DNA of 64,000 nt from Saccostrea cucullata. Its lineage: Eukaryota. Positions 17,393-51,872 of the stretch are shown piece after piece (within the stretch, counting starts at the first letter, position 1; the number at the start of each line of letters is the position of its first letter). A program made the position numbers and the translations under genes. Location: contig NW_026932328.1 of NCBI RefSeq assembly GCF_032062105.1, positions 186,001-250,000 of the forward strand. Reading direction: 5' to 3'. The notes beneath the pieces are model-generated. The model saw nothing but the letters and a program-made list of their open reading frames with translations, did not search any database and was not told the DNA's origin.

Positions 17393-17462
17393 AAAATAGG
17401 AGAGGAGTAAACACGGACGTCAAAAACATCAGAGTTGGGATCAGGTGCCATGGAGGAGTGAA
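17393..17462 (-). mobile_element. Naiad/Penelope-like 3' module fragment
   Basis: Reverse complement of the module at 50900-51010 (gggatcaggtgccatggaggagtga). Confidence 0.75.
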
Positions 17463-17926
17463 CAAAATATAAAAAGGAAAACAGCAATATCTTAAATTTA
17501 TATTTGTAAAAACGAAAACTTTACAATTTTCATTTTCAACTAATAATTAAATTTGAAATATAAATTAAGAACACTTATGTAGTTTATTTTCTGGACATTA
17601 TGATTAGTTTTGTGCGTACAACCCCCTTCATTTCGTCCAGCATTTAAAAAACGTGCAAGAAAGTCATATATTTATTAAGCTAGATTAAAGATGAAAGAAA
17701 AAATATCTTCAGCTTCCCTTTCTTGTCAGTAGCGTTCATAATTGCCACGACTCCACCATCATACATATACCTCTAGGTTGCTTTTCTTTTTGAGGTTTAC
17801 TTAAATGATAATTAACCCTAGGATAAGTAATTATTTACGTTCACTCAGGCGAAGTTGGACCAGCTGGCCTTCACTATTTAATCCAGCAATTTTTGTAAGA
17901 CATGCTTTTTTCATAACACCTTGGCC

Positions 17927-19465
17927 ATGGGCATCCAGTGTTTAATTTGTTGTCTCTTGCTGGTGCTTCCCAGTATCTACGGATTTTGTTTTTCTACGTT
18001 TGGAAGGGTCGATATAACAGGTTTAGTATCTTCTTATTGAACAACACTTAATTTTTTTTTTATTAAATATTCATTTGATTTTGGTGTTTTGTTAACTTTA
18101 ATTTGTATTTTATATTCCTTCAATTTCAGAATCTCAATCAAAATTGTTTATAACTTACAAGTATTTTTATAACTGTTATAAATATATCAAAAAATGATAA
18201 ATCGTGTTCTTTCTTTTTAACACAAATACTCTGAGAGATTATTATTTTTATAACAATATCAATGTTCTTATTAAAACGACAAAATTTCTCAAAGTGAAAT
18301 TTATCATGCTGGTTTCAACGAAATAATTTTTAAAAAAAATGTTTTGTTCCAATTCATTGTGTTCCCTCAAAATGAAATTTTGAATCTGTACCTGCAAGGG
18401 TAGTACTGTTATTATCTTGGTAATTACACGTTAAAAATGCTGGCGATGGATTTCTGTAAAAATAACCATGAATAAAATTTGCAATTTGAAAAGAAATTAC
18501 TCCAAAATACATTTTAAAGCGAAAGTTTTAAGATGAAACATATGGAGATAACGAAAATCAAAAGTTTATAGAACAATACAAAATAGGAGCAGAGCAACAC
18601 TGACGAAGATATAACTTCTTATGTTTTCATAATAGACAATAAATTAATTTGTAAGAGAATATAAAAAAAACAATAACCGTGTTGTTTATTTTCAGCAACT
18701 GGGCGGAGGGTTCCAGTATGTGAATTTAATGGTATTGACTTTCTAGATGGCTCAAAGTTCACGACAACGGGCTGCAACGAGTGCGAATGCAAAAAGGGTC
18801 ATTTACATTGTTGTGGGTAGGTCCGACATTCCGCTCAGAAAACAGTTATTAAACTTTGCATGTTTGTTTTGATAGATAGAAACCATTGGGTTTTTTTTTC
18901 ATTTGGGTAAACTTTTTATTTCAGCATTGGTACAAATGCTGGTGTAATACAACCACCTCCAAACTGCAAAATTTTGAAGGACGGTTGTATAGCGAGAGAG
19001 GTTCGGATATCTGACGAAACACTTGACTGTGTTACCGGAAAACCTTATCGAAACGATACTGGGGAAGTATCATTTCCTACAGGCGCCACGCCTTTACAAG
19101 CAGGTTCTCCCACAACAACTGACCCGATAGGAGGTGTAGCTGTGGGTCATATCCCACATCCAAGCCTCTCCAAATCCACTGTCAATTCTATTCCTAATGA
19201 TGTGGCAACCTTAGAGAATATTTTCAATACTATTGCTAACAATGCCCAAAATGGAAAACGTACTTCTTTTGATGACCTGCTTCGAGACATATCGTCCAGA
19301 AAATCTCTGATGCAATCCAATGTTGTTTATCCCAAGTTTCCAAAATATCCACGGGTTCCATCTACTCAGTACTCAAATTCTTTCCAATTGTTTGATCCAT
19401 ACACCACTAACGACGCCATGTCAAACTGGTTAATGTACAATGGAATCATGGATGGTGGATTCTAG
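17927..19465 (+). CDS. Beta-microseminoprotein (PSP94)-like secreted protein A, 251 aa, with C-terminal extension
   Basis: Exons 17927-18020, 18696-18816, 18925-19465 (intron phases 1, 2; GT-AG). Signal peptide MGIQCLICCLLLVLPSIYG, then 10 Cys in the PSP94 pattern C..C..CxxCxC..CC..C..C..C; TATA-like tatttaaa at 17875. Confidence 0.85.
18539..18605 (-). mobile_element. Naiad-like extreme 3' end fragment in intron
   Basis: atatggagataacgaa...aacaatacaaaataggagca matches 28214-28265 and the reverse complement of 50995-51056. Confidence 0.65.
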
Positions 19466-28176: not shown

Positions 28177-29176
28177 AAAATAAATATCACACATACGTTC
28201 CTCGAATGGAAGGATATGGAGATAACGAACGGTATTCAATATATAAAACAATACAAAATAGGAGCAGGGCAAACATGAACCTCCGAGACATCAGAGGTGG
28301 GATCAGGCGCCATGGAGGAGTGAGCATCCCCTGCTGACCGGTGTCGCATAATATTTGGTCCGCCTCGTTTAAAGGTCCGGCCGGACCAAATACGATAACA
28401 TATTTGGTCCGCCTGGCTCTATAAGAAAAGGTCCGCCCTCGGCCTTTTATACAAATTGTATGCTTGTGGTTCATTCGATATTAATTGAAAAACTATTCTT
28501 TTAAAATTAATTAAGGATATATAGTCGTGTTAATAGCTAGTGTTTTCTCCAAGAAAATGTAGTAAACAATAAGTAAGAAATCGAAATTAATACATAAATA
28601 AAGGAATGTTTAGATTTATTGATCGGGTTTCTTCAAATTCTTGTCGGGAAGATGGGACATGCTTCTTTTGTCGTTTAAATTAATACACTAATGTCAACAT
28701 TATCATTAAAAAAATATTAAGAATACATGTACATACATTTACCTTCACCGCCTTGTTTACTGACAGAATAATCAGTATTGAATGAACAGATAAATGTTCA
28801 TATATCCAACACGAATCATTTAGTTACACTCTCTTTCCTATAAACATGATAAACGTTTGACTAATCCACTCACAAAAACTGATGTTCACATCTTTTAAAA
28901 TATATTTCTTTATAGTATTGATAAAAGATATCTGTCATTCTTTACGTTTAATATTGTTGTAAATTACTGGAGGATCACTAGCTGTGACAGGGGCTTATGT
29001 CACGGTGTACTACCCTACAACCCTTATTGTAAAAACAACATGCCTACGGATTGGGCAATTGGGGGTTAGCCTATAACTGTTTCGTTTGAGAAAACCTAAA
29101 GTACCATATCCCCTGTGTTTCTTTTATAAGTTAACACTGTTTCTTACCTATTCAAAGGCTAATTATTATATCTACT

Positions 29177-29716
29177 AGATCTCTGCATTTCATTTCCTGA
29201 ATTTAACATTGCCGACAATTTTTGTTATTATTTCGGAATCCGACAATTTCATTTTCATTTTCAACATTATTTATTTCTTTTTTTCACATTTTCGGATTTT
29301 TTAGGATACCTTTACGGCAATTTAAATTTAACATTTAATATTGTTTACTTCTAGTAGTATTAGTAGTAGAAGTAAACAATATTAAGACTAGTTATTAAGT
29401 AAGGGAAACAGTTAAGTGAAGGAAACAGTTAAATGAAACTTCACATTCACAATACATGTATCTACATCTGTTCCAGGGTAAAATCAATTAAGTTTCTTTG
29501 ACAGCTAAGAGCAAAGTCTTTTATTTGAATAAATTATCTAAAATATTTTTAATTACCTTAAGGATTTTTATAACGGATGCATGAATTCTTTTTTCATTTA
29601 CGAAAAAGTACTGACATGAATTTGACAAATGTCGGAGATGAAAACTTTTAAAATGTAAAAACTTAAAAATGTCGGAAATGAAAAGTTCAGAAAATTCCGG
29701 AAATGAAATGCGGCCT
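29177..29716. mobile_element. MITE-like inverted-repeat element, copy 1
   Basis: Ends gcatttcatttcc / ggaaatgaaatgc with subterminal ccgaca(a/t) and tgtcgga repeats. Confidence 0.65.
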
Positions 29717-30479
29717 ACTAAATATTACTCCGGGACAAGGTAAATATGCATTAATTGGCGAAATCAAACAAATTAAGTCGATAAATTGCTGGATTTATAA
29801 ATGCCTTTATTTTTCATATTTAATATGCATGTTGCTCATATAAAATCTCTGTGCACTACATTTATGATATATTATTTATACTTATGTCTCTCGGTTTCGG
29901 TTTCAATAAAAATCCGAACATTTTATACCCCCTCCTAAATGTTTTTTTTTAGGGCGGGGGGGGGGGGGGGGGTAATGGAGTGTAGTAAAATCACGCAGAT
30001 ACCTGTCAAAAAAGTTTAAAGTTTTAAAGTATACCGATATTGTACATATAAAGAGCTTGAGTTTAAAGACACACAATTTCAGAAAAGAACGAATGCACTT
30101 ATGAGCATTGGTAAAATGTGAAAAAATAAACAAAGTTAGCAAATTTTTCATATCAAATCATTAATTGATATCTAAACCACACGATTCAACAATCTTTGAC
30201 GCTGAAATTCACGAAGTATAAAGAACAATACCATACAATGTGGTTGGGGTCAGCCGACTTTTGTGATCTTCTATTAATAGTAAATCGAGAACGGTCATGC
30301 ATTTCAAAAATTTTGTTTACTATGAGCCTAACTTTGTACAAACTTGTGCACATGTGAATAGCAAAAGACGTATAATACATTTATAAAGCTTGTGTGAAAG
30401 TAGGAAATTTGCACACAATTAGGCTGGTACTTAAAATATTAATTAAGGAAGTTCTAAACACTGCACATTAAAAAAGTTC

Positions 30480-31720
30480 TAATCTCTAGTTTTCAAGTTA
30501 CGAAAATAAACCTTGTCCAAAAATTTTCCCTTTCTAACATAAAAATATTTAAAATACAGAGGGCGAACCTTTTCTAATAACTGCGTTTTAAGGTCCGCCC
30601 TCTCTATTTTTCTAGTTTTCAAGCTACGAAAATAAACCCTGTCCAAACATTTCCCCTTATGACATGAAAATATCTGAAATACAGAGGGCGGACCTTTTCT
30701 GATAACTGCGTTTTAAGGTCCGCCCTGTCTCTTTCCCTAGTTTTTTAAGCTACGAAAATAAACCCTGTCCAAAAATTTCCCTTCATAACATAAAAATATC
30801 TGAAATACAGAGGGCGGACCTTTTCTGATAACTGCGTTTTAAGGCCCGCCCTTCTATTTTTCTAGTTTTCAAGCTACGAAAATAAACCCTGTCCAAAAAT
30901 TTCTCTTTATGACATGAATATATCTGAAATACAGAGGGCGGACCTTTTCTGATAACTGCGTTTTAAGGTCCGCCCTGTCTCTTTCTCTCGTTTTTTAAGC
31001 TACGAAAATAAACCCTGTCCAAAAATATCACTTTATGACATGAAGATATATAAAATACAGAGGGCGGACCTTTTCTGATAACTGCGTTTTAAGGTCCGCT
31101 CTGTCTATTTTTCTAGTTTTCAAGCTACGAAAATAAACCCTGTCCAAACATTTCTCTTTATGACATGAATATATCTGAAAAACAGAGGGCGGACCTTTTC
31201 TGATAACTGCGTTTTAAGGTCCGCCCTCTCTATTTTTCTAGTTTTCAAGCTACGAAAATAAACCCTGTCCAAACATTTCTCTTTATGACATGAATATATC
31301 TGAAAAACAGAGGGCGGACCTTTTCTGGTAACTGCGTTTTAAGGTCCGCCCTGTCTCTTTCTCTATTTTTTAAGCTACAAAAATAAACCCTGTCCAAAAA
31401 AAATCCTTTTAATATGACATAAAGATATATGAAATACAGAGGGCGGACCTTTTCTGATAACTGCGTTTTAAGGTCCGCCCTGTCTATTTTTTTTTAGTTT
31501 TCAAGCTACGAAAATAAACCCTGTCCAAAAATTTCTCTTTATGACATGAATATATCTGAAATACAGAGGACGGACCTTTTCTGATAACTGCGTTTTAAGG
31601 TCCGCCCTGTCTATTTTTCTTTTTTTAGTTTTCAAGCTACGAAAATAAACCCTGTCCAAAAATTTCACTTTATGACATGAATTCGAAGATATATGAAATA
31701 CAGAGGGCGGACCTTTTATT
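30480..31720. repeat. ~125-bp tandem satellite array, ~10 units
   Basis: acagagggcg-type anchors at 30556, 30681, 30807, 30931, 31057, 31182, 31307, 31436, 31563, 31700; each unit contains the hairpin gagggcggacctt...aaggtccgccct. Confidence 0.97.
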
Positions 31721-31837
31721 ATACTACGTTTAAAAATTTTAAAGTCATATATAAGGCGTTTTTTTTATAAGTTCAGACTAAAAAATATAAAAAAGATCTT
31801 TCTATTTGTTTTGGTACTTTATATACCACTGTAAAGA

Positions 31838-32360
31838 TAGGACCGCTGCATTTCATTTCCGGAAATCGACATGTCATTTCTGCCATTTCTTTATTTCATT
31901 TCCGACAATTTGTCTTTTCTTTTCTGACATTTATTTCTTTTAATTTCTGGAATTTTTGCAAGGTACCTCTCCGGCAATTTAATGTTTACCAGGTACATGT
32001 ATATAGAAATGGAATTTTGAAATTTATTAAACACAACATTTTTAATATAAAAGTTCTGTATACATGTATATACATCTGTACATGAAGCACTAAGTCTAGT
32101 TAACAGAGTTTAATGAGCATGCAATTTTTTCATCGCATTTAATGTTCACTAAATTAAATGTCAAAGACTGCGCCGAACATTGATTTACTAAACAGTCTTT
32201 AATTTATTCTTTAAAATTTTTCATTACCGGAAAGCACTAAATTCCTGAAAAATGTCGGAGATGAACACTTTAGAATGTCGAAAATGAAAGCTTATAATGT
32301 CGGAAATAAAAAGTTTAAAATTTCAACACCAAAAAACAAATCCGAAATGGAATGCAGACT
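31838..32360. mobile_element. MITE-like inverted-repeat element, copy 2 (same family as 29177-29716)
   Basis: ctgcatttcatttccggaa ... aaatgtcggagatgaa ... gaaatggaatgcag. Confidence 0.65.
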
Positions 32361-32459
32361 GAAACATTTTATGAAAATCAAACAATTTAAATCAATCGCG
32401 TTTCATAGATATTTTATTAATTTTTTAAATTACAAACTTACGGTATATCAGGAGATCTT

Positions 32460-33960
32460 CTTCAGTGGTTTTCTAGTTATTTGTGTAAAAGGTCAAAAAA
32501 AGTTATGTATAAAGATCTGTTATCATCAAAACTAGATATTTTTGCAGGTGTACCCCAAGGTTCCGTTTTAGGACCCCTTTTATTTCTGATATATGTAAAT
32601 GATGTTGCTGTAAATATGTTATCATTGTGCAGACTTTTTGCTGATGACAATTCGCTTCAACACTCTTCATATAACATACTTAATATTGAATATAACTTAA
32701 ATCATGATTTACATATTCTGGAACTTTGGTCAAATCAGTGGCTTTTAAAATTCAACCCTTCTAAAACGAAAGTAATTTTTTTCAATAAGAAAAACATTTC
32801 TGTTATGCCTAAATTATTTTTTAAAGGTGACAGACTGGAGTGTGTCCCTGTTCATCGTCATTTAGGTCTATTGTTATCACAAAACCTTAGCTGGACTGAA
32901 TACATTGATAGCATTGTAAACAATGCTTATAAGAAACTTGGGCTTTTGAAAAAACTTAAGTATAAAATCGGCAGGACACACCTTTCAAAATTGTATGTCA
33001 CATTTATCAGACCCTCGCTCGAATACGCTTCAATTGTTTGGGATGGATGCTCTAATAATGATGCCGAAAAGCTTGAAAGAGTTCAATTATCTGCAGCTAG
33101 AATTGTTACAGGTCTTCCAATTTTTGTGTCAAGAGAAACGCTTTACTTTGAAACTGGCTGGGAAACATTGAAAGTTAGGCGCTATAATGCAAAAATGACC
33201 ACGATGTACAAAATTCATAATGGTAGTGTACCTGAATATTTAAATGACATTGTTCCAAACAAGCGTGAAAACATTTCAAAATATAATACCCGTAATAAGG
33301 AACAATACGTTGTCCCAAGATGCAGATTAGAATTATATAAAAGGTCTTTTATTCCCGACGCTGTGAAACAGTGGAATTTACTAAAGACAGAAACGAGGGA
33401 ATCTATCTCACTTAATGCAAAAACTTAACTACAGAAGTAAAAAAAACCCAATTCATTTTTCATTTGGCAAACGCTATACAAATATAATCCATACTAAACT
33501 TAGACACAACTGTATACTTAACTATGATTTACATAAAAGAAATATTATTAATAGCCCTTTATGTTCATGTGGAAAGTATGAAGATGTTTATCATTTCTTT
33601 TTTGCCTGCAGAAATTATCCAAACGCTAGGAATAATCTTTTCAATCGCCTGTTTTTACTTGACGAATTGGTCAATATTGATACAAATTTGTTATTATTTG
33701 GTAAGTAAATTTGCCTGTAGAAACAAATACATATATTTTTGCTGCTGTGCATAAATTTATTGACGAATCTTGTAGATTTTAAATTGTTATATTACTGAAC
33801 AAATATTTCACTTATCTCTTTTGCATTTGAATTTCTATGTACTACATGTACATGTATTTTAATTGCATGACATATAGTTATATTTAAGGAGAGGAACTCG
33901 TAAGTTGAAAGAACTTGTTTCCAACCCTTTTGTTTATACAATAAAATATGTTCAAAACAT
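32460..33960 (+). mobile_element. 5'-truncated CR1/L2-group LINE (RT C-terminal half)
   Basis: GVPQGSVLGPLLFLIYVND, LFADD, FNPSKTK, HLG, RPSLEY; frameshift near 33420; CSCG..H.FFAC motif; aataaa near 33940. Confidence 0.9.
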
Positions 33961-35155
33961 CATAGATATCCGAGATTTAAAACAGTGGCCGATTCTTATC
34001 GACTCGGAATTTACATAATGTAAATATCAGACACAGTTTTAATTCAATTAGTTTGAATTTAACTAATAGAAACGTGGGGATATTTAAGTTCAATATCGGT
34101 GAAATTTTTAATTTGAACATAAAAACCAAATCTCATGTAAATCTACGCTTAATCTATTATTCTTAATTTTTAGCTCAAATACGCCATATTTAGCTTTAAA
34201 TATTCAAATAAAGATTATACATGTATGGTTAAAATTATTAAAAATGTCGCAGTTTTGAAGTGTACGCCTAAATATTTGGTTCCTTGGCATAATTTATTTA
34301 TTTAATTAAAAAATCAGATCATTCTATTAATATGTAAAGCTAACACATGACCATTAGGTTCACCGACCATTCAATCACAGCGCCATCTGCCGCGGGCTCT
34401 ACCTGTGGGTGCGGTGGGTACCTGTCAGGTAAACAAATACGTCACACACCCATTGTTTTATTATATAGCTGATTTCACACCTTTAATCGTACTAATTTAC
34501 AAAAAGCAAATTCTAAGGAAAAACAAACACTTGCAAAATAATTGTGGTATGATTCTTAAAGAAATCATGGCCCTAAACGGCACTGCTTAAAGCACACTAT
34601 ACGAGTAGATTCTTGTCTGGAGATACTTGTATGTTGTACAAAAAATAAAACACAACAGGGTTAATCCTTCTTTCATCATATAGTATAGACAAATACCCGG
34701 TAGCCTTAATTTCATATGTTAAATTCAAGATTAAAACATTTTGCACCACCCGGACCTTAAAACGCAGGGGGACCTTTTCTTATACGAGCCGGACCTTTTC
34801 TTATAAAAGGCGGACCAAATATGATATCGTATTAGGTCCGGCCGGACCTTTAAACGAGGCGGACCAAATATTATGCGACACCGGTCACACTCGCCGTGTG
34901 CTCCTTGTCATGATCGGGAAATAATGGAAAAATCCGTCGTCAATTCAGTATATAAATAATGGACTAACAATTAGTATGAAAAACGTCAGTCGAGTATAAA
35001 TTTCTTGTTACTCGTCATATTACTGACTATTCCAATTATATTCATTACTATTACAATATTTGGTAAACGCTTAACTTGTTTTAAACAGAATATTCACCAT
35101 ACAAAATTAGTGCAATATATGAGATTTTGATTTCCTGAATGATTACTTGGAAAAT

Positions 35156-36000: not shown

Positions 36001-36774
36001 CTATAAAATTTTCTGTGTGTCTTAAAGTCAATCAAACATCATCAGTGATTTGTTGAATTTTAGCAAACAGTACATTTGTTGTTTAAAGTCTTTGTCGCAA
36101 AAGATGGTACCAATTTTTTATGCTTATTATATCATTTTTGTTCAATGAAATCCACCTGCTCATGTGTCTATTAAACAGACATTGGTTGCTGTAAATTTCA
36201 TATATTTCAGTGCATATTTCTTTCGGCTTCTTAAGTATTACTGTGCCATCTCAGAATGTACAATTCCTGTAATTACTCTGCTCTTCGGAAGCATCTCACT
36301 TTAATGTAGCTGAAGTTCACAACATCAAATGTCAAAAAGTCAGCAACACTCCTTTGTACCAGTTGGTAGCATACTGGCTGGTCCTTCCAATGTAGAAATG
36401 TAGATTGTGGATATCCGTGTCATCAGGTGTACCTCCTCCAACAGCAGCTTTCATAAAGCGTTTAATTTAACTATTGTTCACTGATTCTTCATCATTCATT
36501 TCTAATGCAGTGTCTTGAGTAGCCCTTCTTTTCCATCTTCTCACAATGAAAATATGTCATGAAAAGTGGTCACATAAACTGTAATCAATTCAATAACGAT
36601 TCCATCATGAGAGAAAGTCAAGCTTAATGTCACATGATTTCTTTATTGTCTGTCAAAGAGCCAATGACATTATTTACTGAACAACACTTGTACTGTACTC
36701 AGGAATCTCACAAATCCCTGCTTATTAACCACATTTTTCTGTTAGAAAGTTTTTTTTTAAATAAAGAAAGCCTA

Positions 36775-37405
36775 TGAAGCAGAATTTGTGCAAAATCTTA
36801 TGCGTGAAAAGAAGAAAACACTTGCTGTGGCTTTCAACTCGACATTTAGATATATCGACAACGTATTGTCAATTACCAATGGTCACTTCCATTCCTACGT
36901 CGATACGATATATCCTAGTGAGCTTGAGATAAAAGATACCACAAAGTCTGACACATATGTTTCATACTTGGATATTTTACTTGAAAAAGATGGTAATCTA
37001 ACAACCAAACTATATGATAAACGTGATGACTTTAACTTTTCTGTCGTCAACTTCCCTTACTTATGCAGCAATATACCTTCATCACCTGCATACGGAGTGT
37101 ATATGTCTTAGTTGATTCGATACACAAGAGCATGCTCTACATATAAACAATTTCTAAAACGAGGCAAATTATTGACAAGCAAGTTGATGAAACAAGAATA
37201 TCAATAGTCTCGTTTAAAGTCATCATTTCGTAAATTTTATGGTCGATACAATGATCTTGTCACTGAATTGACGACGACGACGGATTTTTCAGTTATTTTC
37301 ATATCAAGACAGGGAGCACACGGCGGGTGTGATCGGTCAGCAGGGAATGCTCACTCCTCCATTGCACCTGATCCCACCTCTGATGTTTCGGAGGTCCGTG
37401 TTTTA
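36775..37405 (+). mobile_element. 5'-truncated Naiad-type Penelope-like element
   Basis: FNSTFRYIDNVL, KLYDKRDDFNF, SNIPSSPAYGVY followed by the conserved 3' module. Confidence 0.9.
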
Positions 37406-38449: not shown

Positions 38450-39110
38450 AAAATAAGAACCCTTGAAATTCCTATAGGTTGGATCCGGTGCATCGACGGA
38501 GTAAGCATTCCCTTGTTGATCGGTCCCATTCGCTGTGAGCCCTATGTATTGATAGAATAAACTTCTGTAGTCAAGTCAGTATGAAGAAAAAAGGCCTAAC
38601 AATTGGTAAGAAAATGTCAGCTAAAATACACCCTGAATGATAGATTTAATTTGCTAACAAGGTCATTAGATCAAGCATACAAATACAGAATGCGACTTTA
38701 AAAGAGAAATTCCTGTCACATCAGCTATTCAATAAGAAGCTTAAGAATTTATTGTACTCAAAGCAAGATTTTGAGTAACGAACACACTGGGAGACATAAA
38801 CACTATAATTATTATGAGTGGGCGATCGTGACAGTGGAATATTACTACACAAATAAGTTGACAATGGAAAAGCTGAAGCCATCTCGTTTGTCATGCAATT
38901 TAGTTGTTGATTGGCCTTTATTTAGTCAGTAATACATCCAAATATGAAACAGATGTGGCATACTCTCTTGTGTCTCAAAATTCCAGTTCACTGGGATATA
39001 TCGAGACGACATATAAATGAAAATAACATTTTTTAATTGATAAAACATCGTCGATGTATCTGAATGTCGAATTGAAGGCCAAAATTCAAACAGAAAAATG
39101 AAGAATATAA
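38450..39110 (-). mobile_element. Degenerate Naiad-type element
   Basis: Minus strand encodes AFNSTFRYIDD and KLHDKRDGFSFSIVN; decayed 3' module near 38460-38540. Confidence 0.8.
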
Positions 39111-40792: not shown

Positions 40793-42254
40793 ATGTTGAG
40801 AGCCAATAAAACCAGGGCATCGAAGGCCAAAAGCCCATATGCCCGCCCAGTATCTAGGACTTCTGCGGCGCATAGTATTATTAGTTACATAGTCTTTTAG
40901 TGACAGGGTATGGGATGATACCTGGTTAGTAAATTTCATACCTGGCGAGGCGGAGCCGAGTCAGGTATGAAATTTACTAACCAGGTATCATCCCATACCC
41001 TGTCACTAAAAGACTATGTAACGAATTTACCCCATCGATGAAACATTTAATACGTTTTATCTGTTGTTTACAAATGGTTTTCTCTGCTAAATGCTTCATC
41101 AGGCTTATACTGTGCCTATTATGACGTCACGTTTGTGTTTGTGACGTAATACATCGACCGGGTATAGATTTACAACTGACCGGGTATAAGTAATCCACCG
41201 CCTTCACGTGACAGACTTCAACCAATCGCAAGCCAGGATTTCACGGAAAAATCGACAGAGGTGGGGTAATGTAGCCTCCAGGGTGACCACCCAAGCATCC
41301 ACGGTAGCGTCGACGTCCATTGACCCCATCATACCGACATCAGTCAACAGTCATTATTCCCAGGCAGCTATGTCAGTGCCAACAAGAACTTACATGGTCA
41401 GCCAAGAATCGCTTGTTCAATCAGTACCCTTACAGCCTGTCTACGAGACTGCAGACATCCTAACTCCGGTTGTGCAGACTGTACCCACCCAACAGACAGT
41501 GGAGCCGCAGCTGCCTGTGCCAACAACTAGCACTACAGCAGGTATAAATTGCATGGTTGAAATAGATAGGCCTACACCTTTTCAGAGTGTAGCATCAATG
41601 CTTGGAGCTCATGTCTCTCAAACATTGAAAGAAAAAATTTGGAATAACGAGTATGTCGCTTTGAGCAAACTGTTGATCAAAGAGCCAGTTTCAGATATAC
41701 AGCATCATATTGTTTATCTTGATGGTTTAATTCAGGTTAAACCTAAGTACAAAGATGAAAAAATTATGTCTATTTCACAATGGACTGATGCCTTTTTAAT
41801 TTTTGCCTCAATTTACTGCGCCAAGCACTCTGCACAAGCTATAAATTTATTTCGTTATATGGCAACAATTAGAAAAGGTGCAGAGCGTTCACCTACGTCT
41901 TATGGTTGGAGGGATTATGACATCCAGTTTAGGCTGAAAAAATCATTTGATTCAAATCTTAACTGGGGTTCGGTTGATGCTGAACTTTGGTTGTTTTATA
42001 TGCAGCCCACTGTACAAAATTCTAGTCAGAATCCCCCCAAACAATTTAAATGTTACTCTTACAATTTTCAGGGTGTTTGCGAAAAACACAATTGCAAGTT
42101 TTTGCATATTTGTGTGAAATGTAATGGTTCACATCCTTCTTTACATTGCAGATCTTCCCAGAATAACAATGTCAAACAATTCCCCCAGTCTAGGCCCACA
42201 CAACAGCAGTTCCGCCCAAGATTCCCACAGCGAGCAATTCGACCTACACAATAA
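40793..42254 (+). pseudogene. Gag-like ORF interrupted by a 391-bp insertion
   Basis: ATG at 40793 (MLRANKTRASKAKSPYARP...) rejoins in frame at 41268; KIWNNEYV, WTDAF, WRDYD.QFR and C-x7-C-x4-C-x3-H-x-C-x2-C-x3-H-x4-C zinc fingers. Confidence 0.82.
40877..41267. mobile_element. Long-hairpin non-autonomous element (probably Crypton-like) inserted in gag
   Basis: Perfect 61-bp arms at 40884-40944 and 40962-41022; removing the element restores the gag frame. Confidence 0.7.
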
Positions 42255-43862
42255 GTTATGGGATTTAGGCCATTCTCCAATTAAAACCAACAATCTTCAC
42301 AAATTATTAATAAATTATCCTGACAGAAAAGTTGCCAACATATTAGGGCAGGGTTTTGAGAAAGGGTTTTTGTTAAATTATCAGGGCCCTAGAGTAAGGG
42401 TTGAATATAAAAATATGAAGTCTGCAATTCAACACTCTAGCGATCTAGAAGAAAAGATTAAGAAGGAAATTGGATTAGGTAGGGTTTTGGGTCCTTTTTC
42501 AGCCCCCCCCCCCCAATATCAAATTTAAGATGTAGCCTAATAGGTTTATTACCTAAAAAACAAGGTGGATGGCGTATGATAACCAATCTTTCACATCCTT
42601 ATGGTGATAGTGTTAACGATTACATAGATCAGCAAGATTGTACTGTCAGCTATGCTTCGTTTGATGATGCAATTAACATAATTCAAACCAAAGGAAAAGG
42701 GGCCCTTATGGCAAAGATGGATATTTCTAGTGCATTTAGGCTTTTACCAATCAATCCTCAGGAATTTTGTCTGCTAGGTTTTAAGTTTAATAATGCATAT
42801 TATATTGACAAGTGTTTGCCAATGGGGTGTTTAGTATCTTGTTCACTGTTCGAAAAATTTTCATCATTTTTACATTGGGAATTAGAACAGAGGTCACAAA
42901 AGGATGGTATTGTTCATTACTTAGATGATTTTTTTTTGCTGGATCAGCGAATTCTAGTGAATGCAGAGAATTAATGTATCATTTTCAAGAACTGAGTCAA
43001 TTTTTAGGAGTTCCAATTACACCAGAAAAAACTCAAGGTCCTTGTACAAAATTAACATTTTTAGGGTTAGGAATAGATTCTGTTGAAGAGACAATTTTTG
43101 TTCCAAAAGAGAAAGTAGATGAATTGTTGGAAAAGATAAAGTATGTTCAGTGTAGTAAAAAAGTAACAAAGAAAGAATTAGAATCGCTTGTTGGTTCACT
43201 TGCCTTTGTTGTAAAAGCACTACCGGCTGGTAGGGCATTTTGTAGGAGAATTTACGGGGCACTACAAGGTGTTGATAAATCTTTTCATTTGATTAGAATA
43301 TCTAATGAGATTAAGTTGGACCTTCAAATGTGAGTTGTATTTCTGCAAAAGTTTTAATGGACTAACTCGGTTTCCATCAGTAGATTGGTCAGATAGTGAT
43401 ATGTTGCAATTTTCTACAGACAGTTCAGGGTCGGTTGGGTGTGGTGTTGTTTTTGGCGATGAATGGAGTGTGTTAGTTTGGCCAGCAAGTTGGTCTCAGG
43501 AGATAAAGAAGGATATTACTTTGTTGGAGCTCATTCCAATATTGTTAGGTATTGTTATTTGGGCAGAAAAACTAGCTTCTAATAAATTGCTATTACATGT
43601 AGACAATTTAGCACTTGTTCACATAATTAACAACAAAACGTCAATAAATAAGAGAGTTATGGTTTTGCTGAGAGCCTTGGTCCTCAAAACATTGCAGAAT
43701 AATATTCAGATCAAATGTCAACATATTCAAGGTATAAAGAATGATAAGGCAGATGCTCTCTCTCGTTTTCAGTTTTCGAGGTTCCATCAGCTGGCTCCTG
43801 GGGCTCGGCCTTATCCCTGTCCAGTTCCTATGCAATTTTGGCAAATTATTCATCAACTGTAG
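42255..43862 (+). pseudogene. RT/RNase H of the Ngaro element (three frameshifts)
   Basis: ITNLSHP, KMDISSAFR, LPMG, YLDDF, TFLG; RNase H TDSSG, ELIPI, VDN, ADALSR; frameshifts at the C-run ~42510, the T-run ~42935 and ~43330. Confidence 0.92.
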
Positions 43863-44701
43863 AGAACCTGGTAGATGCTAGCATTTCGGACAATACAAAC
43901 AAAGTTTATAGGCAGGCATTCAAACCTTTATTTAACTCTTTTCCACAATTGTGGCCTCCACCTGTTGACCATGTCATCAATTTTGTTGCACACATGTCAG
44001 AGAAAAAATGCGCCTTTTCAACTGTCAAGTGTTATCTGTCTGGTCTGAGCTTTTTTATAAACATTCATGGATGGCCAAATTCTGTGGAGTCATTTTTAAT
44101 TAAAAAACTGCTTACTGGTTACAAAAAGTTGACTGTGTCTAGTGATATTAGAAGGCCTATTACCTTGCACTTATTAGGTCGTATCATAAATACCTTGCCG
44201 TATGTTGCACATTCTTTATACGAGGCAACATTATTTCAATGTGCCTATTCAGTAGCATTTTTTGCATTGCTTAGAGTCAGTGAAGTAATAGACCTTCAAT
44301 CTGATAGTGTTCAGTTATTACAAGACCATGTTAGTCTACTGATTAAAAGTTCTAAGACTGATCAAATGCACAGGGGTTCAGCAGTTAAAGTTCCAAAGCA
44401 TGCCCAGTCATTAATTTTGTTTACAATACTGCAGAAATTTCCTGCAATGCGTCAGACAATTTCAACTACAAAATTTTTTGTGCATTTCAACTCCAAGCCT
44501 TTGACTCAGTATCAGTTTTCTACAATACTCAATAAATGTTTATCATTTTTGAATATAAACACATCGGTTTTTAAATCTCATTCTTTTAGAATTGGTGGGG
44601 CCACACATCTGTATTTAAATGGTATGAGCGAAGCTGAAATCAAAACCATTGGCAGATGGAGTTCTGCTGCCTACAAGTCATATATAAGGCCAATTGTTTA
44701 A
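43838..44701 (+). CDS. Tyrosine recombinase
   Basis: LLRVSE, SKTDQ, SHSFRIGGAT, GRWSS and YKSYIR give the catalytic R-K-H-R-W-Y set. Confidence 0.92.
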   Translation: MANYSSTVENLVDASISDNTNKVYRQAFKPLFNSFPQLWPPPVDHVINFVAHMSEKKCAFSTVKCYLSGLSFFINIHGWPNSVESFLIKKLLTGYKKLTVSSDIRRPITLHLLGRIINTLPYVAHSLYEATLFQCAYSVAFFALLRVSEVIDLQSDSVQLLQDHVSLLIKSSKTDQMHRGSAVKVPKHAQSLILFTILQKFPAMRQTISTTKFFVHFNSKPLTQYQFSTILNKCLSFLNINTSVFKSHSFRIGGATHLYLNGMSEAEIKTIGRWSSAAYKSYIRPIV

Positions 44702-44741
44702 TAAGTTAGATGCAAATTTATTTTGTTCAAAATCGTTTCAG

Positions 44742-45346
44742 ATTGCATATGGATCATTGGTTCATCTTTGATATTTTGGGCTCAGAAATATGCTCAACAG
44801 AGAATGCTTAACAACCTGGGATTTGAATCACATAGGATAATTTGGCATGGAATAAGGGGTATGGTTTGGTCACAGCTTTATCCAACTATCCAAAAGAAAT
44901 TAAAAGATAATAACCCACCAACAATCCTAGTAATACACTGTGGTGGCAATGATATTGGTAATCCGCATAATACGTTGAAGGGTTTACAAATGTACATGAA
45001 ATCTACCATTGTAAATATTTCACAATTAATGCCAAAGACAGTTATTGTTTGGTCTCATATTTTACCACGAAGTAATTGGACCTTATGTCTTTCTAACAAT
45101 GATGGAGAAAATTGGAGAAGAAGAATCAATTCTGCACTTGCTACTTTTGTTGTTAAGAAAATGTGTGGGGCCTCCATTAAATATCCTGATATTTTAAAAA
45201 GACATGTAGCCCTTTTTCGCAAAGATGGTGTACACTTGTCAGACTTGGGTAATGACTTGTTCGTGAATTCTTTAAGAAATGCTCTGGGGGTGTTTTTGTC
45301 AACCACTGACAGATTTTATCCTACTACTCCCACATGTACTTGTTAA
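44742..45346 (+). CDS. SGNH/GDSL hydrolase domain (no ATG start; begins at a predicted splice acceptor)
   Basis: Blocks IIGSSL, GIRG, HCGGNDI and DGVHL. Confidence 0.85.
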
Positions 45347-46069
45347 GTCTTGTCATGGCCAATCCTTGAAGTTGTGAAGTTGCATATTTGAAAATTGAAT
45401 TGTATACAACTACTGGTTGAGTGTTAAATTGATAAATATGTATTTGTATTGATGAATGCAAAATTGACCGCCTAGATTTGTTGGCGGATGACCCACAAAA
45501 AATATGTTTTGTGGTTCATTAGGCAGAATTTTGCAGAGAATGCCACCTCCATGTTTTTTCCAGGTCCCTTGGGTCAAGGTGGTGTTTCTACTGCTTTGAG
45601 TTGTTTGTGTATATGCTGCCATATCGATTTGAAGATCGGCGCATATTTTGTTGTTTTGTTGAAAAAATTGTGAATAAATGGCCATAAGTACGCCAAACAT
45701 TAATTATTTGTAATATTTTAATTAGGTTAGGTCAATAAGGTCATTAGGATATTAAGTATCAATTTGTAGAAATTATTGTTATTGGTCTTCCAATGGTAAA
45801 GAACAATGGTTTGTAAGGGGTGCTTTGCTGTCTAAAAATAACAAGCAAAGACGGTTTTTTGACGTATTTTATATTGTAAAATGTACTTTGCAAACAATAA
45901 AAAAGAATAACCATTCTCCAGACCTCTGAATTTGAGGGGTTTTTTTAATTCCAAACGTAACAAAAGAGGCTATGATTGGCGATGAGAGATGATGAGGCGA
46001 TCTATGATTATGGATATTGCAAATCTTAGGCTTTTTAAACTCCCACGTTTTACTTAAGAAAATGCCGCT

Positions 46070-48175
46070 TAAACAATCATTAATTTTAAACTTCAATATG
46101 CCAATAAAGGAACTGACGCGATTAATATAAGTAATATTCTTAACCACAAAAGAATATATGTACAGTCTTGCGTTCCACCATATTCAACTTGAAGACTACA
46201 CCTTGTATTTCCTACAATTATACATCGACTATTGCTTCCAAACTTTTTTTAATTACAGTAAAACTTTACATGGCCTGGATATCGAATATCTGAACCTCAG
46301 TCCTCCATTGCGTTCATATTCTTCTTTACACTACAACTACAGTCCTGCTGGACACGGTATTACTGGTGACGTAAATAAAATTAATAATGAGGACCTTAGA
46401 TCACTAATTTTTAAAGGTCCTGAATATAGGTAGCCCCGATCCTTCAACAGACGTCGGAATTTCGGGAATAGAATATTACGCCAGGTGATGGACAAGACAT
46501 GAAAAAGAAGACTTTGACACTTTGTCAGAATGGATTATTAAATGCATCAGCTGTATGTTAAAATCGCGCGTTAAGCTATTAAGGGGCATTATGAAAACTA
46601 TCTATCCTCCTGTTTTCAATAACCCAGAAGTAAAAAAAGGAATAATTATTAGAAAGATTACACGATTAGTATGTACTGGTCCCTGTTGACACAGCAGGTA
46701 ACAATGTTGTCTTCGTTTGTAAAGCTCATTTTAGAGAAACATGGATTTAATTCTATAGGTGTAAATCCTACTTAAACCAATAGCTCCCTTTCTAAGGAAG
46801 AAATTATTCACAACCAAATGTCAGTTTTGAATATTTTTAATATTCCAAACAACCAAAATGAATTTAAATTACCATATCTATGCTGGATTCCGAAGCTTCA
46901 TAGAAATCCTTACAAAGATACATACATGTAGCAGGTTCCTAGAAATGTTCTACCAAGCCTCTTTCTTTACTCCTCACCAAAAGTCCAAAACATTAACAGT
47001 AGTGAAGGAGAAACTTCAGGAGTTATATGCAATAATATATTTGAGAAGCGGTGTAAATAAGATCTGGATATTAAAAATTCCAAGGGACGTTTGGAAAATT
47101 GAAGTCACAAAATTGTGCAAAATTCAACAGCATTAAAACTTACGACTTTTCAACTTATATGCAACCATTTCTTCGCGATTAATAAAGTTTAGGCTTTTTC
47201 ATATCATTGACAGCTTTAAAAAGAATGGAATTAGTAAATTTACTTACAGTGTCTTTGGTCATTTGCAAATTTATTTTGTTAAAGGAGATTCTGATTGTTT
47301 ACACAAGTTCTCTGAAGTTGATAATAAAAAGATGCTTGAGTTTCTGATTGACGGTATCTTTGTAGTTTTAATTGGAGACCAGGTTTTCCAACAGTCAATT
47401 GGAATTCCCATGGATACCAATTTCGCCCATTATTAGCAGACCTATTTTTGCATTTAAATGAAACATAATTTTTCCAAAATCTTATAGGTGAAAAGAGGAA
47501 AACAGTTGCTGCGGCCTTCAACTCAATATTTAGATACTTAGTATATCGACGACGTATTGTCAATTAACACTTATGTCGATACGATATATCCAGTTGAGCT
47601 TGAAATAAAAAAAATTCCACAGAGTCTGACACATCTGTTTCATTTTTACATGTATATAACTTGAAAAGGGCATTAACGATGATCTAACAACTTAGCTTTA
47701 TAACAAAGGAGATGACAAAAACTTTTCAGTTGGCAACTTCCCTAATTTTTTGCAGCAATATACCTTCATCGGGGTCTGTAGCTTTAAATTGATTCGATGT
47801 GCAAGAGCATGCTTTACGTTTAAACACTTTTTAAAATGAGGTAGATTATCAACAAACAGGTTGCTGAAACAAGAATATCAGCAGTCATCATTTCGCAAGT
47901 TCTATGGTCGATACATTCATTGCATTGTCAGCAAATACAATTTATCATTAAGTCAAATGCTGACTGACGTTTTTCATACTTGTTAGGCCATTATTTACAC
48001 TGTCTTGTCGACGGATTTTTCCGTTATTTCACAGACATGATAAGGAGCACAAGGCGGAATGTGTCCTTAATGGCACCTGATCCCCCTCTGGTTTTTTGGA
48101 TGTCCCTGCTTCTATTTTGTATGGTGTAATAAACTTTTGAGCTTGAATACTGTTCTTTATATCCATAAATTTCAT
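46070..48175 (+). mobile_element. Longest Naiad-type Penelope-like copy (degenerate)
   Basis: YANKG, the linker P.GH.ITGD..I.NEDLRSLI.KGP.YR, a decayed CxC (cgt-tca-tat), NNVVFVCK, RT motifs and the 3' module; no C-terminal GIY-YIG. Confidence 0.85.
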
Positions 48176-49056: not shown

Positions 49057-51872
49057 ATGCACGCTTTGCCGATATATCTGCTTTTGCTTTCGATCGTGCA
49101 TTCGTGTCTCGGAGCCTGTACAGTCACACCCATTCAAAATGAGCCCTTAGGTAAGAAAATTTTATTGAATAGAACGTTATTGAACAGTAAGAATTACATT
49201 TTGGAGGGGGTACTGGATGTACATTTGCAGTAGCATAACTTATATTACATCAAATGATAACTCATTTGAACATACTGAAATATATTTTGTTGGTTTTAAA
49301 ATAAAAAATTAAGGCTTTTTGAAGATTTAATCGTATATTCTGATGTTGTTTGGAGCAATCTGTAGAAATAAATTAGGCTATTTAGTATAATATGTATAAT
49401 TTGACGAAATATTACTTTGAGGTGAGATGAAAATTGTTTATAATTTTTAGCTTGTGGGATATAATCATCTGATATATGGATACGTCTTTTCGCCGTTGTC
49501 CGGAGACATACCTGTACATACAGGTGTGTTAAGATCTGACAACCTATAAGTAGTCTGTGGTGCATCATGATTTTTTTTAATGAACTGCAGTTGCATGTTT
49601 TGATTTATTTCCTGGTTTCAATCATATAAATAAAAGATTTTTTTTAATAAAAAAAATCAAAATATTTGTTTGTAGAAAAATTGATTTATCACATTCTAGC
49701 TACATTTCTGATGTAGAAGTTTCTTTGTGTACTTTTTACATGTATTACACTAAATAATGTCGAAGACTGTTTTAATGTACAGTGTACTAAAGTTCATGAC
49801 CTCGAAAACCTGCCCAGTATTTAGGCCACAAGATATTCTAGATGTATCGCTCAGTTTTTTAAGGTATCGAAAGCTCTCTGTCATACGGGGAAATAAAAAG
49901 TTATTTCCGATTGCGGACCTCTATGAAAAATTATTATGTAAACGTCAATGCTAATCATAATGTACGCATGTAAGATGTTCATATAGCTAAAGTACGTAAA
50001 TAACCTCATATTATTCATTAAAGGTTTAAAACGTAAACAAAAAATCGAAAAAGAAAATTGAATCATTTTCCTTTTTTACAGCAATGAAGTCATTTCGATA
50101 TTTCTGTGAATATATCCACAACGACAAAATCAAAGGACCGACAAAAATAAAGTATGGACAAGGTTCCGTATTTGAGGATGTGGATTCCTGTCAGAGGTGT
50201 CGATGTAGTCAGCGAGGATTGGATTGCTGCGAGTAAGTAACATGCGTATCAGAGTAACCCCCTCCAAATAAAGACTGAGTGTTCACAGGAAGCCGCACTT
50301 TATATCGCCCTTTTGAGTGGGGAACTAGGTATATATCCTTATTGTGGCAGGGGATTGGGTTAAGATATATGGACGACGTATTGTCAATTAACAATGGTCA
50401 TTTCCATTCCTACGTCGATACGATATACCTGGTGAGCTTGAGATAAAATATACCACAGAGTCTGACACATTTGTTTCATACTTGAATATTTTACTTGAAG
50501 AAGACGTTAATGGTAATCTAACAACCAAGCTATATGATAAACGTGATGACTTTAACTTTTCTATCGTGAACTCCCGTTTTTTATGCAGCAATATACCTTC
50601 ATCACCTGCAAACGGAGTGTATATATCTCAGTTAATTCGATACGCAAGAGTATGCTCTACGTATGAACAATTTCTAAAACGAGGTAAAATATTGACATGC
50701 AACTTTAGGAAACAAGAATATAAGCAGTCTCATTTAAAGTCATCATTTCGTAAGTTCTATGGTCTATACAATGACCTTGTCAGCAAATACATTTTATCAT
50801 TGAGTCAAATGCTGACTGACGTTTTTCATACGAATTTTTGGTCCATTATTTATACACTGAAATGACGACTGATTTTTCCGTTATTTCCCGATCATGACAA
50901 GGAGCACACGGCGGATGTGACCGGTCAGCAGGGGATGCTCACTCCTCCATGGCACCTGATCCCACCTCTGATGTTTCGGAGGTCCACGTTTGCTGTGCTC
51001 CTATTTTGTATTGTTTTATGGACTTTGACATTGAATACTGTTCGTTATCTCCATATCACCCTTTTGAGCAGACCAGTCGTTTTGTAGATCAGTGACTACA
51101 CAGCCAAAACTCAGAATATGTATTTAGAATGACATTGAAAACAACGAAAATACTGTCATTTAAGAGATAAAAAGCAGATAATTATATCAAACTTAAAGAA
51201 AAAGAGAAAAGGAGGTCGGATTAAGTTTTAACATCGTTTGTTACATAATTATTACCATTCTCTAAGCAAAACTTTAAAGATTGACTATTTCAGAATGTTT
51301 TTTCTTACAGGACTGGATTGAAAGTAAAAATAGCACCAAGGTCAATTCCCGTAGAATGTCACATAGTTAAAGAAGGGTGTGATCAATATTTAGTGTACAA
51401 AGGCGACAACATCACAGATTGTGCTACTGGTAGACCTGCTAAAATAGTACGCCAAGAACAAATTGCGCAAGACAAACGAAGTCAATATATCGAAGATATG
51501 CTCTACAAAGAAGTAATGCAAGATATGGATGGAACATCCGGAGCCAATAGAGAAGTCGAAGGAAATTTCAAGCAATGGGTTCTTTTAGACTACTTTCTGA
51601 ATGACGCATTTGTTGGCCGAATTCCATCTCCCATTGTGGATCAACAGAAGACTCCAGCAGAACTCTCCGGGTCTTCACCAATGAAAGCAAACACAGCTGA
51701 TTCAACTATCGGCTCGCTTACAAAAGGTTTTGTTGACAGTCTTGGAGGCCCGGATGCTGCGCGCGCAACCATAATGGAGAGAATTAAAAACTATGACATT
51801 GGTAGTCCACATAACCAGGGACTGAATGACAACCTTCCACTTCTTTACCTTCTATCAACTTTGATAAATTAG
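49057..51872 (+). CDS. Beta-microseminoprotein (PSP94)-like secreted protein C, 268 aa, with C-terminal extension
   Basis: Exons 49057-49150, 50082-50232, 51311-51872 (phases 1, 2). Signal peptide MHALPIYLLLLSIVHSCLG, ACTVTP, SCQRCRCSQRGLDCC, PVEC..EGC..DNITDC. An acceptor at 49052 suggests an upstream non-coding exon. Confidence 0.87.
50364..51056 (+). mobile_element. 5'-truncated Naiad-type element in intron 2 of PSP94-like gene C
   Basis: YMDDVLSI, KLYDKRDDFNF, GVYISQLIRYAR and the best-preserved 3' module. Confidence 0.9.

Follow-up and report, generated by a model that had tools for sequence, protein, structure and literature searches.

A pseudoknotted RNA module with two palindromes at the 3' end of Naiad Penelope-like retrotransposons, a candidate dimer-activated self-cleaving ribozyme

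Penelope-like elements (PLEs) are the closest relatives of telomerase, and the mechanism of their retrotransposition is poorly understood. Minimal type-I hammerhead ribozymes of PLEs lie in the pseudo-long terminal repeat (pseudo-LTR), carry a palindromic stem III and cleave as a dimer (PMC4209133, PMC6765202); statements on papers cited here by PMC number refer throughout to the passages that were available to us. The Naiad clade of PLEs was reported to lack the hammerhead and yet to proliferate well (Craig et al. 2021, PMC8557442); the available parts of that paper describe searches for hammerheads and selenocysteine insertion sequence (SECIS) elements only and report no structure at the place considered here. 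The locus described in this work lies in a 64,000-nt stretch of contig NW_026932328.1 of Saccostrea cucullata (the window; all positions are those of the whole stretch), in which a unit of about 80 nt, hereafter the module, follows the reverse transcriptase (RT) end of a Naiad PLE. Comparison of its copies and relatives points to a covarying RNA fold that is predicted to work in pairs, and we tentatively propose a self-cleaving function for it.

Fold, covariation and dimer design

As judged from aligned sequences, the module is a conserved pseudoknotted RNA that contains a three-way junction, a 5-bp pseudoknot (B) and two palindromes of 10 nt (Pal1) and 4-6 nt (Pal2), arranged from 5' to 3' as P0, A, Pal1, (R)RCAG, B, GCUYAC-spacer, Pal2, A', B', P4 and P0' (Table 1). 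The alignment set comprised 176 records, of which 13 were dropped for a locus GC content of at least 0.5 and 163 were clustered, with 32 medoids taken regardless of structure; two-sided changes were counted on the MAFFT alignment (A1). Such changes occur at 13 of 13 free pairs, in 149 cells of the 32 representatives as against 45 +/- 5.5 after shuffling. The eight strongest covarying column pairs among the 32 medoids are five of Pal1 and three of pseudoknot B, and the set holds 17 distinct perfect Pal1 palindromes and 19 distinct fully paired B helices. Overall, 92% of cells are paired compared with 36-42% when partners are slid, the former figure being inflated by helix A, whose letters were fixed by the search pattern and which shows only a G-U/G-C change.

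The wider search pattern fixed only CGGGUG, CAG, GCUYAC and CACCYG and left Pal1, B and Pal2 free, and its chance matches provide a natural control for these free parts. At least four of five pairs in Pal1 together with at least four of five in B were found in 88 of 122 metagenome matches and 49 of 53 matches in this genome (G000), as against 1 of 56 in GTDB; the other 55 GTDB matches and both viral matches lack the joint palindrome and pseudoknot. The single GTDB case (L240:167-218, on a 407-bp contig in a bacterial assembly) is a module nearly identical to that of Naiad_Pmar and is probably animal contamination. A purine stands directly before CACCYG in 32 of 32 representatives, compared with 29 of 55 control matches. 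For the closing part of the fold, a test of the P0 duplex did not separate real rows (27/30) from controls (37/55), and tests of the junctions were used instead: zero-nt junctions B'/P4/P0' with at least 10 bp in all occur in 13 of 30 rows compared with 0.8 in shuffles (maximum 6), and a looser test gave 21 of 30 compared with 11.5. By these junction tests the closing stem cacgg/ccgtg and the hairpin acctctga-tgtt-tcggaggt drawn in a first-pass annotation, made from the letters of this DNA, survive.

Other parts of that drawing are modified by the comparison. In every family gggtgt can pair with gcacct, though no two-sided change occurs there. Two of the five drawn pairings fail: the hairpin agggg...ctcct is weak (59.9% of cells paired, 54.6% after shuffling), and ggtcag/ctgatc stands at shuffle level (52.1% in both). 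In place of the pseudoknot originally drawn, the comparison gives GGGAU (50932-50936) paired with AUCCC (50959-50963). The suggested switch is rejected as well, as the hairpin alternative to B is good in five bivalve entries, fails in hemichordates and reaches at least four of five pairs in 10 of 32 representatives, as against 25 of 32 for B. An alternative pairing between YACYC and the 5' strand of helix A is complete (5/5) in 27 of 32 representatives and in 20 of 55 controls, with most of its letters fixed by the pattern.

The key feature absent from the drawing is the two free-sequence palindromes that force one module to pair with another. Neighbouring bases of one strand cannot pair with each other. 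At the centre of Pal1 the two neighbouring bases are complementary in 29 of 32 representatives, with 15 two-sided changes, and at the centre of Pal2 in 25 of 32, with 11. Adjacent central bases thus covary as pairs, which is impossible in a hairpin, so that these helices must form between two modules, and the module is predicted to work in pairs via its two palindromes. The mean energy of the Pal1 self-duplex is -12.0 kcal/mol, compared with -4.7 +/- 0.5 kcal/mol after shuffling. When 14 intact modules picked by hand were cofolded, the dimer was favoured in 14 of 14 (Pal1:Pal1 in 12, Pal2:Pal2 in 2), a result that is supportive only, as the calculation leaves out pseudoknots and has a bias towards dimers in RNAs rich in hairpins. 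Pairing of a palindromic stem between tandem copies, a trait of the minimal hammerheads of PLEs, is predicted for the module as well, and bears on its mode of action rather than on membership. The first bases of Pal1 and Pal2 also vary together, and the last base of Pal1 could pair with the first base of Pal2 in 27 of 32 representatives (24 of 55 controls); the first-base correlation may reflect kinship or a cross-helix contact.

Host element, genomic copies and range

The host element of the module is a Naiad PLE, as first supposed. Intact members of the family (L063-L065) have one open reading frame (ORF) of 1027 amino acids with an N-terminal GIY-YIG and a C-terminal RT domain; Pfam places GIY-YIG at residues 159-247 (E 2.9e-4, just under the cut-off) and a weak RVT_1 match at 785-877, and the translations contain the Naiad marks CxC (CSC), DKA (ADKAG) and a KR-rich linker (RRKR). 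The family also shows the Naiad trait of 5' truncation with partial tandems that form pseudo-LTRs, and its 3' end is nearly identical to the published Naiad_Sglo consensus (PMC8557442). The RT piece upstream of the reference module has one frameshift, has lost the family stop and matches the intact L063 ORF at 82% in tblastn. In 55 of 60 loci chosen by RT protein alone the module lies about 74 nt past the end of the RT ORF, and it is repeated in the upstream pseudo-LTR; the conserved, foldable 3' module of the first-pass annotation is confirmed as a covarying RNA structure in the 3' untranslated region and the pseudo-LTR.

Homologous loci share the 3' end of the reference copy (Table 1) and have ragged starts, and sharp 3' ends were seen in most of 100 sampled copies. 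Fixed 3' ends combined with ragged 5' ends identify the copies as 5'-truncated retrocopies, and the module copies without RT that had already been noticed need no special cause, since 5' truncation yields them. Head-to-tail arrays at a spacing of about 3.3 kb exist (C22741), so that both module partners can share one transcript. At L164:1-1308 (-), a 987-nt unit without the RT ORF keeps the module, and the partial copy upstream of it begins near module position 42; this unit looks like a non-autonomous partial tandem.

All seven sites in the window at which a recurring module of about 100 nt had been pointed out contain the module, in some cases only a worn part (Table 1). The exact core pattern matches once in the window, as against 0.00 expected from shuffles, and 7,982 times in G000, as against 0 for the reversed control; the 3'-terminal 18-mer of the element occurs 10,432 times in G000. 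A covariance model built from the family alignment recovered four of the module cores in the window. Single-sequence folding gave z = -2.84 on the + strand and z = -0.82 on the - strand for the copy at 50895 and z = -0.64 for the copy at 37300, and this spread makes such folding alone a weak support. The insert that splits one copy within Pal1 (28335-34887) is about 6.5 kb long, has terminal inverted repeats of about 100 nt (94%) and a 6-bp target duplication, and is likely a DNA transposon or a miniature inverted-repeat transposable element (MITE).

Table 1. Positions of the module parts, the host element and the further module copies in the window
Feature	Position	Strand	Remarks
C-terminal RT ORF piece of 5'-truncated Naiad	50360-50865	+	amino acids ~868-1026 of the 1027-aa family ORF; ORF 50392-50865
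Reference module	50907-50988	+	one helix A change and two closing-stem changes, slight decay
P0, 5' strand	50907-50911	+	closing stem of three-way junction
Helix A, 5' strand	50912-50917	+	family CGGGUG, G>A at 4th base in window copy; invariant in 11 File S5 entries by eye (available part)
Pal1	50918-50927	+	10-nt palindrome, free sequence, predicted intermolecular helix; two-sided changes at 5/5 pairs
Linker (R)RCAG	50928-50931	+	unpaired; CAG invariant
Pseudoknot B, 5' strand	50932-50936	+	GGGAU; two-sided changes at 5/5 pairs, 86.9% of cells paired
GCUYAC and spacer	50937-50946	+	GCUYAC invariant, spacer pyrimidine-rich; candidate catalytic strand
Pal2	50947-50952	+	4-6-nt palindrome, free sequence, purine right before CACCYG; two-sided changes at 3/3 pairs
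Helix A, 3' strand	50953-50958	+	CACCYG; only one-sided G-U/G-C change
Pseudoknot B, 3' strand	50959-50963	+	AUCCC; junction strand between helix A and P4
P4 hairpin	50964-50983	+	variable in length and sequence
P0, 3' strand	50984-50988	+	two changes in window copy
U-rich tail to fixed element 3' end	50989-51057	+	28/29 other loci end at 51056-51057
Second copy	37276-37403	+	3'-truncated; RT piece 36773-37262 upstream
Long decayed Naiad copy	46001-48167	+	module stretch 47996-48167, internal module deletion at ~48040
5'-truncated copy	17346-17464	-	start inside module
3' half of split copy	28213-28342	-	break inside Pal1
5' half of same split copy	34880-34991	-	
Old copy	38476-39081	-	RT end upstream and worn module
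Worn copy	60821-60997	-	
Eighth piece	18540-18597		tail only

Elsewhere in the window, 30483-31734 holds tandem repeats spaced about 125 bp apart. Judged by motifs, the ORF series at 41190-45346 (gag-like, RT/RNase H, recombinase, SGNH-like) presumably belongs to a DIRS-type tyrosine-recombinase retrotransposon, and 4589-8063 (-), 32421-33428 and 56544-57748 (-) hold what we take to be L1/Tx1-like and CR1-like non-LTR pieces and a Harbinger-like transposase.

Outside this genome, the module is present in 11 published Naiad consensus ends, entries that were chosen by protein (File S5, PMC8557442); the last 280-400 letters of 50 of the 54 consensus ends were read by eye and four 8-mers were searched. 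The 11 are the bivalve entries CGi, Sglo, Olur, Tgra and Pmar, the hemichordate entries Skow-1/2 and Pfla-1/2 and the hydrozoan entries Chem-1/2, and CGGGUG, CAG, GCUYAC and CACCYG are kept in all of them; in the Chlamys passages of File S5 the four 8-mers revealed no module. The letters-only pattern found 122 loci in metagenomes (25 of 64 parts scanned), and in 28 of these the end of a Naiad RT, with 37-67% identity, lies upstream. The same core letters occur in families that share only about 40% RT identity with this one (L148); they were fixed by the pattern there, yet are invariant in the 11 protein-chosen entries. Ten fully structured metagenome modules have no Naiad RT within the fetched flank; modules without RT in that flank include L103, L109, L125, L134, L160, L173, L183, L191 and L208, and in L109 the opposite strand carries part of a GIY-YIG sequence. 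The RT query had no match in viral contigs, and a second RT query returned the same dominant family, so that G000 added little covariation. In the open literature that we searched on Naiad and Penelope-like ribozymes we could not find a description of this fold; subscription journals lay outside this scope and may hold a prior mention. The passages returned from Eckert et al. 2023 (PMC10085705), supplement search included, contain no oyster or hemichordate entry.

Self-cleavage weighed against other functions

It is proposed, tentatively and on a nearly even balance of the evidence, that the module at the 3' end of Naiad retrotransposons represents an undescribed class of self-cleaving ribozymes and is activated by dimerisation. 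Small ribozymes are typically marked by a compact pseudoknot with invariant, unpaired letters around it. The position of the module, its dimer design and the invariant unpaired letters around its pseudoknot suggest a likely third ribozyme type in this slot, and a functional substitute for the hammerhead, an idea already raised in the first-pass annotation, appears to be the best reading of the position and the dimer design. Where a transcript runs through a tandem, full or partial, its upstream module would join the downstream one, at a distance of about 3.3 kb, by Pal1-Pal1 and Pal2-Pal2 pairing. CAG, GCUYAC and the purine before CACCYG would thereby make up a complete active site at the inner helix A end. 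Cutting, perhaps followed by re-ligation, would then free unit-length or circular RNA from multimeric transcripts only, in line with proposals on the minimal hammerheads with palindromic stems in other PLEs (PMC4209133, PMC6765202); our first guess for the scissile bond is the step between CGGGUG and Pal1. A wider proposal, possible but held at somewhat below an even expectation, is that at least three unrelated ribozymes (the module fold, twister and hammerhead) were exchanged into one slot of the Naiad clade with the dimer switch retained.

Several ribozyme classes were found via an unknown conserved fold in the usual slot of a known ribozyme, and to our knowledge only about ten small self-cleaving classes are known. 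The present candidate is of animal origin and among the commonest repeats of this genome; if true, the ribozyme reading would answer the point left open by Craig et al. 2021 of how Naiads proliferate without hammerheads. Even without cleavage, the module would be an undescribed RNA fold whose free palindromes are unusually clean comparative evidence for RNA-RNA dimerisation in PLE retrotransposition.

A number of observations weigh against self-cleavage. No single base collects the 5' ends of the genomic copies: 8 of 100 copies form a weak cluster at module positions 42-51 that did not sharpen on follow-up, two junction-selective searches with two windows gave similar totals (393 and 444 matches), and in the first 100 rows of the 393-match search, read by eye, about 48 truncations are spread over positions 32-49 with at most 6 per base; they rise broadly at 37-42 with no one base standing out, a pattern that could be explained by microhomology. 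Among 62 pseudo-LTR/body junctions the whole module is present in 40, with scattered starts inside it in 12 and downstream of it in 10, indicating that the template usually carries the module uncut or re-joined. Invariance of sequence in a helix is a commoner trait of sites bound by protein than of ribozyme stems. In Naiad-1_Chem the module occurs together with an HHR_core flag (File S1, PMC8557442), the other 10 of the 11 entries being unflagged, and this double state indicates that one ribozyme does not strictly exclude another in the swap. Of the 32 representatives behind the two-sided changes, about a third are decayed relatives from one large group, which makes the cells interdependent. 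Hammerhead cleavage was dispensable for insertion in the one PLE tested in vitro, an anole element, and no reads that end at the hammerhead cut were found for that element either (PMC11167929), which makes the 5'-end test a weak one.

The strongest alternative is a non-catalytic dimerisation and recognition signal, in which the palindromes would pair modules like a retroviral dimer-initiation site and the Naiad RT/endonuclease would read helix A, CAG and GCUYAC, either to load the template and place the fixed 3' end some 75 nt further downstream or to steer a tandem-making template jump. Since protein binding accounts at least equally well for the invariant sequence of helix A, we regard such a signal as a serious, if rather doubtful, contender; the fixed 3' end just downstream of the module, the lack of a cut-site signature in insertion ends and the retention of the module in the 987-nt L164 unit without RT ORF all agree with it. 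The compact pseudoknot with its invariant unpaired letters, in contrast, is what one expects of a small ribozyme, and the mussel and clam Naiads have a twister-like core and palindromes instead of the module, in the available File S5 entries, and an RT that works regardless. PAc speaks to both sides: its protein, for which dimerisation is predicted, begins reverse transcription at an internal site of the RNA, whereas the protein-binding region of PAc lies downstream of the hammerhead, at the ORF start (PMC11167929).

A rewired pistol ribozyme, with Pal1 as P2, P4 as P1, ACYC/GGGU as P3 and a cut after the last G of CGGGUG, is unlikely. The pistol features purine-32/G33 and G40/C41 (PMC4604425, PMC6154101, PMC6795133; Rfam RF02679) recur in order around the pseudoknot strand, as CAG before and GC after B in the 11 File S5 entries, a G33-C41-type pair is possible, the G before Pal1 is invariant and P4 is stacked directly on B. 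However, the pseudoknot has 5 bp and not 6, its partner is the junction strand rather than the P1 loop, a U occupies the place of G42 in 11 of 11 File S5 entries, and the strict 2-nt P3/P2 junction is absent, the first Pal1 base being any of the four letters and paired in 30 of 32 representatives; moreover, the invariant CACCYG competes for the same strand, and there is no pistol match at E <=10. An element acting at the DNA level, with the palindromes as cruciform or endonuclease sites or as part of a pseudo-LTR promoter, is very improbable: the pseudo-LTR does hold the promoter in other PLEs (PMC8557442) and G-U is only modestly above A-C among non-Watson-Crick cells (17 against 11), but free palindrome sequence is contrary to a sequence-specific binding site, and the pseudoknot and the near-invariant G-U of helix A make sense only as + strand RNA.

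Comparison with known ribozymes

The module fold appears to be undescribed and fails each family tested, and the role that we propose for it is borrowed from PLE hammerheads. Rfam returned 0 matches at E <=10 for window positions 50700-51200 and six weak matches (E 1-8.7) for 20 diverse module loci, none of them a ribozyme and all far below gathering; this check for an already described motif therefore yielded no family. Neither strand of the window copy or of L063 has the CUGANGA of a hammerhead in any permutation, and the GAAA core is likewise absent. Ribozymes of the hepatitis delta virus (HDV) type have a nested double pseudoknot, a P3 hairpin before the 3' strand of P1 and an unpaired J4/2 with the catalytic C. 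In the module, P0 follows directly after P4 without a linker and there is no covarying P3. Core strings, strand layout and Rfam searches, in which neither class matched, thus agree with the first-pass annotation, which could fit neither. There is also no twister L4 string and no Rfam twister match at the module, and the same tool did find twisters elsewhere, at viral loci.

Other ribozyme cores occur at the ends of sister Naiads. By eye, a twister-like core with palindromes in the place of P1 is seen in seven File S5 entries (Mgal, Bpla, Mphi, Scon, Mmer, Movir-1 and Mley) and hammerhead core strings in six nematode Naiad entries; the twister-like cores of the mussel and clam ends are unremarked in the available parts of PMC8557442. 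A 19-nt motif taken from the mussel entries found nine viral loci, five of which are Rfam twister-P1 (56 bits, E 2e-10, gathering score 67 not reached); L469-L471, L475 and L476 (around 1470-1550) are phage twister-P1 ribozymes below the Rfam gathering score. A search of G000 with twister RF02684 had no match, the control being silent too, and a twister pattern had two matches there, neither with RT; no twister-type Naiad end was found among 404 loci, one separate match being due to chance. For comparison with real pistols, five virus records were searched and none was found, with an equally silent control search.

Compared with twister (RF03160, RF02684; PMC5408937), the module occupies the same place as the twister-like cores of sister Naiads, which also carry two palindromes, but it has no UAA cleavage loop or L4 string and one pseudoknot rather than two. 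With pistol it shares the order of A-G, pseudoknot strand and G-C, a pseudoknot stacked on the neighbouring stem and a G at the possible cut; it differs in having no P1 loop, G42 or 2-nt cleavage junction, in its strand order and in its dimer design, and pistol hosts are bacteria and phage whereas the host of the module is an animal retroelement. The nearest published elements are Naiad_Sglo and Naiad_CGi (PMC8557442): the host element is a near relative of Naiad_Sglo, and the published consensus holds the module, unremarked in the available passages. In design the module is closest to the minimal type-I hammerheads of PLEs, with which it shares the position in the pseudo-LTR and a stem cut down to a palindrome, such that two tandem copies must pair; unlike them, it lacks CUGANGA and GAAA and has two palindromes, a pseudoknot and other invariant letters.

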